A stretch of DNA of 64,000 bases from a virus. Shown here in pieces: positions 56,412-57,411 of this stretch. The stretch lies in the IMG/VR virus record IMGVR_UViG_3300033182_000991, positions 48,920 through 112,919 of that record; one strand, given 5' to 3'. Each line of letters starts with the position of its first letter. The first letter of the stretch is position 1. A model generated the notes under the pieces. It searched no databases. It saw only the letters and a program-made list of their open reading frames with translations, and was not told the origin of the DNA. The translations under genes and the position numbers were made by a program.

Positions 56412-56484
56412 TCGGGAAGACAGGACTCGAACCTGCGACCCTCTGGTCCCAAACCAGATGCGCTACCACCTGCGCCACTTCCCG
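56412..56484 (-). tRNA. tRNA-Pro(TGG)
   Basis: Cloverleaf, loop TTTGGGA. Confidence 0.95.
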
Positions 56485-56522
56485 ATAAGACAAATATAGT
56501 CCAAATGTTTTAAAAAAACAAG

Positions 56523-56596
56523 TGGAGGATATCGGAGTCGAACCGATGACCCCTTGCGTGCAAGGCAAGTGCTCTGGCCAACTGAGCTAATCCCCC
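56523..56596 (-). tRNA. tRNA-Ala(TGC)
   Basis: Cloverleaf, G3:U70. Confidence 0.95.
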
Positions 56597-56607
56597 ATTT
56601 TTATTAG

Positions 56608-56679
56608 CGGTCCGTGCGGGAATCGAACCCGCCATACCGGCGTGACAGGCCGGCGTTATAGCCGATTAACTAACGGACC
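56608..56679 (-). tRNA. tRNA-Asp(GTC)
   Basis: Cloverleaf, loop CTGTCAC. Confidence 0.95.
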
Positions 56680-56685
56680 AATTTG

Positions 56686-56758
56686 AGCGGAAGACGGGAT
56701 TCGAACCCGCGACCTTCTGCTTGGCAAGCAGATGCTCTACCAACTGAGCTACTTTCGC
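56686..56758 (-). tRNA. tRNA-Gly(GCC)
   Basis: Cloverleaf, loop TTGCCAA. Confidence 0.95.
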
Positions 56759-56829
56759 ACAAAAAAAGATGAGGTTCTTTTTTCAAGACACATAGTTCCA
56801 ACGCGTATTGTGTGTCTCCCCATCCGTAG

Positions 56830-56901
56830 TGGCGGGGGAGGGAATCGAACCCCCGACCTCAAGGTTATGAGCCTTGCGAGCTACCTCTGCTCTACCCCGC
56901 G
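56830..56901 (-). tRNA. tRNA-Met(CAT), initiator-like
   Basis: CGCGGGG 5' end with 1:72 mismatch, loop CTCATAA. Confidence 0.9.
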
Positions 56902-56908
56902 ATATCAG

Positions 56909-56982
56909 AGCCTCCAGAGGGATTCGAACCCACGACCCCGAGATTACAAATCACGTGCTCTGGCCAGCTGAGCTATGGAGGC
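56909..56982 (-). tRNA. tRNA-Thr(TGT)
   Basis: Cloverleaf, loop TTTGTAA. Confidence 0.93.
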
Positions 56983-56986
56983 ATTT

Positions 56987-57081
56987 GAGTTACTTCAGAC
57001 AGGCATTCTACTCCCAGCTCCGAGGAATTGTATCTAACTTAGCCCTACTCACCGCTGTATGGGTACCTGAAGACGTAACTC
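56987..57081 (-). ncRNA. unidentified structured RNA between tRNAs
   Basis: Closing helices GAGTTAC/GTAACTC and CTTCAG/CTGAAG. Confidence 0.55.
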
Positions 57082-57090
57082 TTTTTTTAG

Positions 57091-57163
57091 TAGCCCGACG
57101 GGGAATCGAACCCCGCTTTTATCCGTGAAAGGGATATGTCCTAAACCGATAGACGACCGGGCC
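57091..57163 (-). tRNA. tRNA-Glu(TTC)
   Basis: Cloverleaf, loop CTTTCAC. Confidence 0.95.
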
Positions 57164-57180
57164 ATACTACTTAAACCATC

Positions 57181-57228
57181 ATTTCAAAGAACACTACAAA
57201 TATACAACTCTTTTTCTTTCTATCAAAC
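57181..57228 (-). promoter_or_regulatory. early promoter plus boxA-like element for the tRNA cluster
   Basis: Minus strand TTTG..TATATTTG then GTGTTCTTTGAAAT. Confidence 0.7.
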
Positions 57229-57238
57229 TATCGGACAT

Positions 57239-57265
57239 AAAAAAACCCACCTTTTTGAGGTGGGT
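57239..57265 (-). terminator. attenuator terminator
   Basis: ACCCACCT-CAAAA-AGGTGGGT-TTTTT. Confidence 0.85.
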
Positions 57266-57292
57266 CTTTAAGTATCTTACGTTATGACAATA

Positions 57293-57361
57293 CTATCCCA
57301 CCTCCGACTTTCGTGGAGTATCACCTTCCGTACCTGGTGTGATATGTAAAATAGTTTTCAT
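57293..57361 (-). CDS. putative attenuator leader peptide (22 aa)
   Basis: MKTILHITPGTEGDTPRKSEVG; last codons GAGGTGGG are complementary to the terminator 5' arm; TATTTATA promoter at 57385-57392. Confidence 0.65.
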   Translation of the reverse strand: MKTILHITPGTEGDTPRKSEVG

Positions 57362-57411
57362 TGAATGTATTATCTGTTTGAGATTATAAATATAACTAAC
57401 AATCAAAAAAA

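Follow-up and report, generated by a model that had tools for sequence, protein, structure and literature searches.

The 64-kb window analysed here (positions 48,920 to 112,919 of the IMG/VR virus record IMGVR_UViG_3300033182_000991) is the 3' part of a 113-kb fragment, estimated to be 38% complete, from an uncultured large phage. On its minus strand, a module at positions 57394-57239 precedes a block of seven tRNA genes that starts with tRNA-Glu, and contains a promoter-like motif, a leader open reading frame (ORF) of 22 codons and an intrinsic terminator. The reading that we favour, with a probability of about 0.55, is that this module is a ribosome-mediated leader-peptide transcription attenuator, which would add read-through transcripts to the tRNA-Glu block. 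This reading builds on the sequence elements, the thermodynamic alternatives of the RNA, the rarity of the arrangement and the presence of the same design in related phages.

In the proposed mechanism, transcripts carrying the 22-codon ORF would start at the promoter-like motif or arrive from the upstream gene for a protein of 92 amino acids (aa). If the leader is not translated, segment 1 and the nested hairpins would hold segment 2 (segments as in Table 1), the terminator would form and transcription would stop. A ribosome that proceeds unhindered to the TAG codon would cover segment 2 with its footprint, leading again to termination. A ribosome that is slow on codons 7-15, which specify Thr, Pro, Gly, Glu and Asp, would instead cover segment 1 and leave segment 2 free to pair with the 5' arm of the terminator, and RNA polymerase would continue into the tRNA genes. 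Depletion of these tRNAs by host anticodon nucleases or by decay late in infection, as originally proposed, is a hypothetical trigger of such slowing. We infer that the ORF is translated, that its translation is coupled to transcription, and that ribosome stalling regulates the read-through. Since the tRNA block has a sigma-A promoter of its own, which the read-through would supplement, the module would at most boost the read-through into these first tRNAs according to demand, and would not be their sole switch.

The sequence features described in the original prediction, that is, the motif, the ORF, the terminator, the alternative helix and the seven tRNA genes, are all located where they had been placed. 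The terminator, which lies between the leader ORF and the tRNA genes, has a hairpin energy of -16.3 kcal/mol. The sequence GAGGTGGG (57304-57297) is a perfect 8-nt complement of CCCACCTC (57264-57257) in the 5' arm of the terminator, and the antiterminator is extended by AGTATT (57294-57289), which pairs with GATACT (57276-57271). In the fold of the nascent RNA, modelled before the 3' arm of the terminator is made, the helices of 8 and 6 bp form together, and this 2:3 helix (-17.5 kcal/mol) is dominant. The perfect complement and the nascent-RNA fold thus bear out the antiterminator that had been proposed to join the last leader codons to the terminator arm. When only the upstream RNA is folded, the minimum free energy (MFE) is -22.2 kcal/mol, corresponding to a 1:2 fold in which 57355-57346 is paired with 57301-57292. 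Two hairpins are nested within this pairing, at 57344-57319 and 57318-57302, and the latter, present in the MFE structure, agrees with the small upstream hairpin that was thought to sequester the end of the leader. The MFE structure of the full transcript (-38.9 kcal/mol) consists of a long 5' domain and the terminator, and forcing the antiterminator costs 9 kcal/mol. The antiterminator is likewise costlier than the terminator fold in the full transcripts of classical attenuators.

The outcome in the folding models depends on the position of the ribosome, which was given a footprint of 30 nt. With the ribosome at codons 7-15, the 2:3 helix has a probability of approximately 1 (-17.5 to -19.5 kcal/mol), at codon 16 the pairing is partial (probability 0.52), and from codon 17 through the stop codon the probability is 0. 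The untranslated leader should terminate according to these models, because the 1:2 fold of the upstream RNA already holds segment 2 and the advantage of the nascent 2:3 state amounts to only about 2 kcal/mol. Codons 8-16, the putative control codons, lie in the range of stall positions that would permit antitermination, codon 16 only partly. The predicted 1:2, 2:3 and 3:4 geometry therefore holds in the models, which follow the logic of a classical attenuator.

For an estimate of how often such a switch is expected by chance, we used 98 predicted hairpin-plus-T-run terminators from about 590 kb of sequence from this phage and five relatives, and scanned the 110 nt upstream of each. Antiterminator strength was scored by duplex energy; the gain in free energy of the nascent fold missed the locus, where the 1:2 pairing competes with the 2:3 pairing. 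The strongest duplex between a 5' arm and its upstream sequence is the one described here (-17.1 kcal/mol, as compared to -13.5 kcal/mol for the runner-up), and it is the sole terminator in the set with an 8-mer upstream complement. Among 5000 dinucleotide shuffles of the leader, 2.1% have a duplex of -15 kcal/mol or better and 0.12% have both the duplex and the stop codon of an ORF of at least 15 codons over it, but p-values of this kind overstate the significance because the hypothesis arose after looking at the sequence and the tests were framed once the pattern had been seen.

The codon content of the leader provides a further line of evidence. Codons 8-16 encode nine consecutive residues that all belong to the amino acids of the seven-tRNA set. 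Under strict wobble rules, eight of the nine codons are readable by the downstream anticodons, while ACT would need a modified U34, so that the match to the cluster tRNAs claimed for this run stands at the level of amino acids but is incomplete at the level of codons. Taken over the whole leader, 10 of the 22 codons are strictly readable by the seven anticodons, and the longest run is seven. Runs of at least seven strictly decodable codons are found in only one of the 534 ATG-initiated ORFs of 18-40 codons in the genome, which is this leader, and in 0.6% of the 22-codon windows taken from real genes.

The start of the leader ORF is credible, as its ATG is located 23 nt past the end of a motif that is associated with real gene starts both in this phage and in its 297-kb relative G001. 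Between 46 and 49% of the TATTTATA copies in G000 and G001 have the ATG of an ORF of at least 50 aa 10-40 nt downstream (mode 13-18 nt), as compared to a median of 13% before gene ATGs for permuted versions of the motif, and 45 of the 91 copies of (A)TATTTATA in G001 are placed 13-18 nt before gene starts. The copy at 57394-57385 also overlaps a TAnnTTTG box with one mismatch. There is no Shine-Dalgarno sequence before the leader ATG, as expected for Bacteroidota (PMC9723704). The sigma-A promoter pattern of this phylum (a TTTG box about 19 nt before TAnnTTTG; consensus from PMC7641319 and PMC9723704) is abundant in the intergenic regions of the window, and because of these many copies the host of the phage is very likely a member of the Bacteroidota. 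Leader-peptide attenuation has been reported as likely in a flavobacterium (PMC9723704), which supports the plausibility of the mechanism in such a host. Two classes of promoter-like sequences are seen in the window and G001: the host-type TTTG-N19-TAnnTTTG before tRNAs and some genes, and (A)TATTTATA before many genes. The latter may be a promoter class specific to the phage, active in the middle or late phase and giving very short 5' untranslated regions (UTRs).

The same design was identified in related phages. We searched 41 related records for the TTCTTTGA box and thereby arrived at G033/G032, and subsequently at G045/G028. Each of these genomes contains two leaders according to an objective rule, which takes the first ATG at a distance of up to 45 nt from a TAnnTTTG box that precedes a tRNA block, and which demands an ORF of at least 12 codons. 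Leader A has 29 codons and precedes a block of 14 tRNA species; 25 of its 28 residues are in the set (p 0.005), and all 14 amino acids of the set are present, including Trp, Cys and His, for which the probability of full coverage is 0.0009. Leader B precedes the complementary block, has 23 of 31 residues in the set (p 0.002) and misses none of its amino acids. In leader A, an 8-nt stretch in codons 25-27, 7 nt ahead of the stop codon, is perfectly complementary to the 5' arm of the terminator, and the ribosome model gives the same logic as for the leader in the window. No promoter is present between its terminator and the first tRNA. The leader A sequences in G033 and G045 are 88% identical, and the differences include an A to G change in the 5' arm, a T to C change in segment 2, which is synonymous in a Ser codon, and a G to A change in the 3' arm. 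This compensatory change leaves both alternative helices intact. Nine codons differ between the two, of which five are synonymous, and each of the four replacements either keeps a residue of the tRNA set or brings one in. In leader B, the terminator is followed by a TAnnTTTG box and a TTCTTTGA box, as in the window, so that a promoter in this position is a repeated element of the design rather than a peculiarity of the locus in the window.

Leaders of a possibly related kind precede a Lys-Ile-Leu-Arg-Met block in G002, G003, G004 and G006, where a consensus promoter is followed by an ORF of 23-26 codons, a conserved terminator and, after it, a degenerate -7 box and a TTCTTTGA box, and where the end of the ORF contains a 6-nt complement of the terminator arm. 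The codon enrichment in those of G002-G004 is weak (p 0.04-0.1) and the long-range helix of only 6 bp is marginal, which makes them suggestive only. Similar to leaders A and B and the Lys-block leaders, the module in the window is composed of a promoter, a short ORF that may be enriched in residues of the set and ends with sequence complementary to the terminator 5' arm, a terminator and a tRNA block. The leaders of the relatives differ from it in that they have clear sigma-A promoters and a stronger residue match, and in that leader A lacks an internal promoter. The idea that related phages share the design is thus supported by independent leaders before their own tRNA blocks, but not by any diverged homologue of this leader, and blastn, tblastn and tblastx searches revealed no sequence homology between the leaders of the relatives and that in the window. 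Nor were homologues of leader A found in 35 further records. We also observed a unit in G047 (L102, corresponding to G047 192500-202500, at ~1330-1690), in which an ORF of 40 codons, a terminator, a consensus promoter and a GTTCATTGACAT box precede a Ser-Gln-Pro block; its residue match is weak and the complement is located far from the stop codon.

Beyond the window, the exact leader is known solely from environmental contigs of 94-98% identity. Three contigs from public assemblies contain the module, here called arrangement (a): in run X2, record 20 has 31 differences in 489 nt; in run X3, record 28 has 6 differences in 281 nt; the third contig is record 13 from run X15. The region 57223-57331, which comprises the terminator, both antiterminator strands and the 3' half of the ORF, is unchanged in X3 and has at most five unlisted differences in X2. 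The ORF is open in both environmental variants with known differences, and both boxes of the sigma-A promoter are unchanged in the leader variants. Four codon changes are known. That in codon 2 affects two bases in a bulge and lengthens the 1:2 helix, that in codon 5 turns a U-G pair into a C-G pair, that in codon 8 turns an A-U pair into a G-U pair and replaces Thr with Ala, and that in codon 10 affects all three bases, located in a hairpin loop, and replaces Gly with Thr. All four are non-synonymous, and the peptide sequence is not conserved. However, both replacements within the run (codons 8 and 10) remain in the tRNA set, and the X2 leader, with its Ala codon, covers the full set of seven amino acids served by the block. 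The contig from X15, which is an RNA library, spans the interior of the ORF, the terminator and a variant of tRNA-Glu, but its depth is low, it has 11 unlisted differences, and it may derive from carried-over DNA. A deletion of 1 nt at 57276 in this contig changes a U-G pair of the 2:3 extension to U-A. The changes in these close variants fit the model but are not compensatory. In arrangement (b), the 92-aa gene is joined via 28 nt to the sigma-A promoter, and in arrangement (c), it is joined via 21 nt containing TATTTATA straight to tRNA-Thr, and therefore this motif feeds tRNAs directly elsewhere.

Several observations weigh against an attenuator that controls the whole block, in addition to the overstated p-values. 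A consensus sigma-A promoter (57227-57197) is located between the terminator and tRNA-Glu, and it is kept before tRNA-Glu in relatives in which a protein gene and not a leader precedes it. Because of this conservation in leader-less relatives, the promoter sequence indicates that the tRNAs are expressed without read-through and do not depend on the leader. The module of 205 nt is facultative, since environmental contigs with arrangements (b) and (c) skip it, and no comparable leader is found at any other tRNA cluster of the 113-kb record. As a sensor of its own tRNAs, the leader is supported by the nine-residue run, but the overall codon match is only moderate (12 of 21 residues in the set, binomial p 0.08), Ala is absent from the leader in the window, and the run is partly constrained by the hairpin that contains it. 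The control of all seven tRNAs, as originally proposed, is also doubtful, although the seven genes do lie downstream. The spacer 56828-56759 between tRNA-Met and tRNA-Gly ends in a terminator-like hairpin with U7, and a TTG-N20-TATATTTG promoter (box at 56498-56491, minus strand) is placed directly before tRNA-Pro. The cluster may thus consist of two or three transcription units, and because of this hairpin and this promoter the read-through may reach only the tRNAs for Glu, Thr and Met.

The searches for diverged homologues also count on this side. None was found in the viral, metagenome and genome collections or the GenBank phages searched, and the compensatory change is confined to the analogous leader A of the relatives. 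Exact-pattern scans of viral contigs for the leader and the terminator gave no match, and a pattern anchored on the tRNA-Glu promoter, applied to viral and metagenome contigs, matched only leader-less relatives. When the leader was compared by blastn, tblastn and tblastx with 47 related loci and six related records, nothing matched outside the promoter region. A search for loci with a profile of 34 homologous sequences of the 92-aa protein yielded only distant relatives among viral contigs and nothing among genome contigs, and the GenBank phages contained no match to the 92-aa protein, the leader or the Lys leader of the relatives. The shares of 0.25-0.34 obtained from the sequencing-run index mostly reflect conserved tRNA words.

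We consider it rather unlikely that the terminator is an ordinary one that ends transcription from the 92-aa gene and the motif, and thereby insulates the tRNA promoter, with an incidental small ORF upstream. Coincidence would then account for the ORF, for the complement of 8 nt and for the run of codons, or they would be a remnant of the 5' end of a gene that was lost on arrival of the tRNA block. The tRNA block does possess a conserved consensus promoter, many relatives lack the module, the residue match over the whole leader falls short of significance, and one 8-mer complement among about 100 terminators is not very surprising by itself. Moreover, the motif after the 92-aa gene in G002-G004 drives a secreted protein of 619 aa, the first codons of which resemble those of the leader. 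However, an alignment with the 5' UTR and gene start of these relatives is not convincing and no translated similarity was found, so the start of that gene was rejected as the source of the leader. The natural substitutions spare the ORF and the predicted pairs, and relatives have the same architecture built from unrelated sequences, in one case with a compensatory change. We favour the attenuator because coincidence must otherwise produce, all at once, the geometry with its duplex, a switch placed at a gene-like ORF, the run of codons and a design that better-supported units in related phages have as well.

It is still less probable that the module is a free-standing unit, either a structured small RNA of about 140 nt or the mRNA of a 22-residue peptide, that has no role for the tRNAs. 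Such a unit would fit with the gene-like promoter motif and the strong terminator of its own, with a fold that is more stable than those of shuffled sequences (z -3.5), and with substitutions that keep the long 5' hairpin domain. A functional peptide is at odds with the four codon changes, all of them non-synonymous, and a small RNA explains neither the placement of the ORF nor the codon content and has no Rfam family at threshold. In addition, analogous units in the relatives must feed the tRNAs, because no promoter follows their terminators. On the attenuator reading, the module in the window would be one example of a more general arrangement, in which large Bacteroidota phages run their tRNA arrays on demand and each block is placed behind a "checklist" leader peptide, composed of the amino acids of its own tRNAs, and a terminator/antiterminator switch, here as a sensor added to a constitutive promoter. 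We regard the chances of this wider proposal as evenly balanced. Checklist leaders would raise the transcription of exactly those tRNAs whose codons are decoded slowly.

Table 1. Coordinates of the leader module and the surrounding features, numbered by window position unless another record is named.
Feature	Coordinates	Strand	Remark
Upstream 92-aa gene, function unassigned	57412-57690	minus	ORF list
Promoter-like motif containing TATTTATA	57394-57385 (TATTTATA 57392-57385)	minus	
Leader ORF, 22 codons and TAG stop	57361-57293 (ATG at 57361; TAG 57295-57293)	minus	
Putative control codons 8-16	57340-57314	minus	all amino acids within downstream tRNA set
Segment 1	57355-57346	minus	pairs with 57301-57292 in untranslated fold (anti-antiterminator)
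Segment 2, antiterminator 5' strand	57304-57289	minus	last three sense codons, stop and 4 nt
Segment 3, antiterminator 3' strand	57276-57257	minus	includes terminator 5' arm
Intrinsic terminator, 12-bp stem, 5-nt loop, U7	57269-57239	minus	
Consensus Bacteroidota sigma-A promoter, TTTG-N19-TAnnTTTG	57227-57197	minus	between terminator and tRNA-Glu
GTGTTCTTTGA box, boxA-like	57194-57184	minus	after sigma-A promoter
tRNA block: Glu(ttc), Thr(tgt), Met(cat), Gly(gcc), Asp(gtc), Ala(tgc), Pro(tgg)	57163-56411	minus	ARAGORN and Rfam
GTTCTTTGA(A/C)AT boxes	window 57184-57194, 59732-59740; L016 ~810-822; L099 ~2105 and ~5090		
Two methyltransferase-like paralogues and 2OG-Fe(II) oxygenase	54844-55479, 57943-58527, 58527-59087	minus	

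The 92-aa gene has its own sigma-A-type -7 box at 57719-57712 (minus strand), and its transcripts therefore also run into the leader. The protein has 61 homologues, all from environmental assemblies and some of them 83-92% identical, and none of the 61 contains a Pfam domain. In every relative examined the gene adjoins tRNA genes, whatever comes after it, and the TATTTATA motif is likewise located after the gene in relatives. Relatives with a 92-aa gene of 62-75% identity continue into the gene for the 619-aa secreted protein, with the same motif, into tRNA-Tyr or into unrelated genes, and in two relatives with a near-identical tRNA-Glu the sigma-A promoter directly follows a protein gene, with neither leader nor terminator.

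The window contains 20 tRNA genes, all on the minus strand. Within the block downstream of the leader, the spacers 56983-57089 and 56759-56828 (minus strand) have paired ends with a closing stem of 7 bp (z -1.3 and -2.0), and the first of them has few changes in the environmental contigs that cover it. A T7 run is located directly after tRNA-Ala, within 56491-56520 (minus strand). The tRNA genes of the window are interleaved with genes for two paralogous proteins of about 200 aa, which have a glycine-rich motif typical of S-adenosylmethionine-dependent methyltransferases but no Pfam match, and with a gene for a 2OG-Fe(II) oxygenase. Judging from their sequences, these could be RNA-modifying enzymes. 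In the tRNA array of a related 22-kb contig (L002/G005, 5294-5369), ARAGORN identified a tRNA with the anticodon tta, which would read the UAA stop codon.

Phage tRNA genes are usually explained by compensation for codon usage or by escape from host defences that cleave tRNAs. If the attenuator reading is correct, there would in addition be direct feedback from translation, in the form of decoding speed, to the supply of tRNAs. The closest known tRNA-sensing attenuators are the T-box leaders of Firmicutes, which bind uncharged tRNA directly, need no ORF and regulate genes for synthetases and amino acids. The module shares with them the proposed sensing of tRNA status and a terminator/antiterminator switch, but differs in that it contains an ORF, and the T-box model gave no match at E <=5 in 57200-57420, nor at E <=1 in 56000-58000. 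A boxA had also been predicted after the terminator, together with a separate promoter. The consensus sigma-A promoter is present, and GTGTTCTTTGA is a boxA-like candidate. Boxes of the form GTTCTTTGA(A/C)AT recur beside tRNA genes in this group of phages, after leader terminators, the first tRNA or tRNA-Tyr, and resemble the boxA of bacterial rRNA operons, to which they may correspond; a literature search for the motif yielded nothing relevant. In rRNA operons, boxA and Nus factors act in processive antitermination, and there as here a GTTCTTTGA-type box is located downstream of a promoter and before genes for structured stable RNAs. However, the GTTCTTTGA box in the window cannot explain read-through of the terminator, because it is located after it.

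The module is most similar to the amino-acid operon leaders of enterobacteria, some of which are multivalent, such as the thr leader, which senses Thr and Ile, and the ilvGMEDA leader, which senses Ile, Leu and Val; others are the trp, his and phe leaders (Gollnick and Babitzke 2002, cited in PMC9723704). Similar to these, it has a short ORF, three mutually exclusive helices (1:2, 2:3 and 3:4), an intrinsic terminator, a stop codon at which a terminating ribosome would mask segment 2, and several amino acids represented among the putative control codons. The Rfam models of amino-acid leaders scored below their gathering thresholds (Phe_leader 26.1 bits vs 55, Trp_leader 14.4 vs 41, Thr_leader 14.2 vs 55), and the best of these scores, for Phe_leader, is driven mostly by the terminator. 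Unlike the amino-acid operon leaders, the module has a mixed run of five amino acids, each used one to three times, in place of tandem repeats, a second promoter after the terminator, and phage tRNA genes instead of genes for biosynthetic enzymes downstream. Literature searches identified no description of attenuators before phage tRNA genes. While the mechanism itself is known, phage tRNA genes as its target and the checklist-like leader are new. Such a leader design could provide a sequence signature for the annotation of tRNA operon structure in uncultured giant phages, and, if the attenuator is confirmed, a textbook mechanism so far tied to amino-acid biosynthesis would be extended to stable-RNA genes and to viruses.

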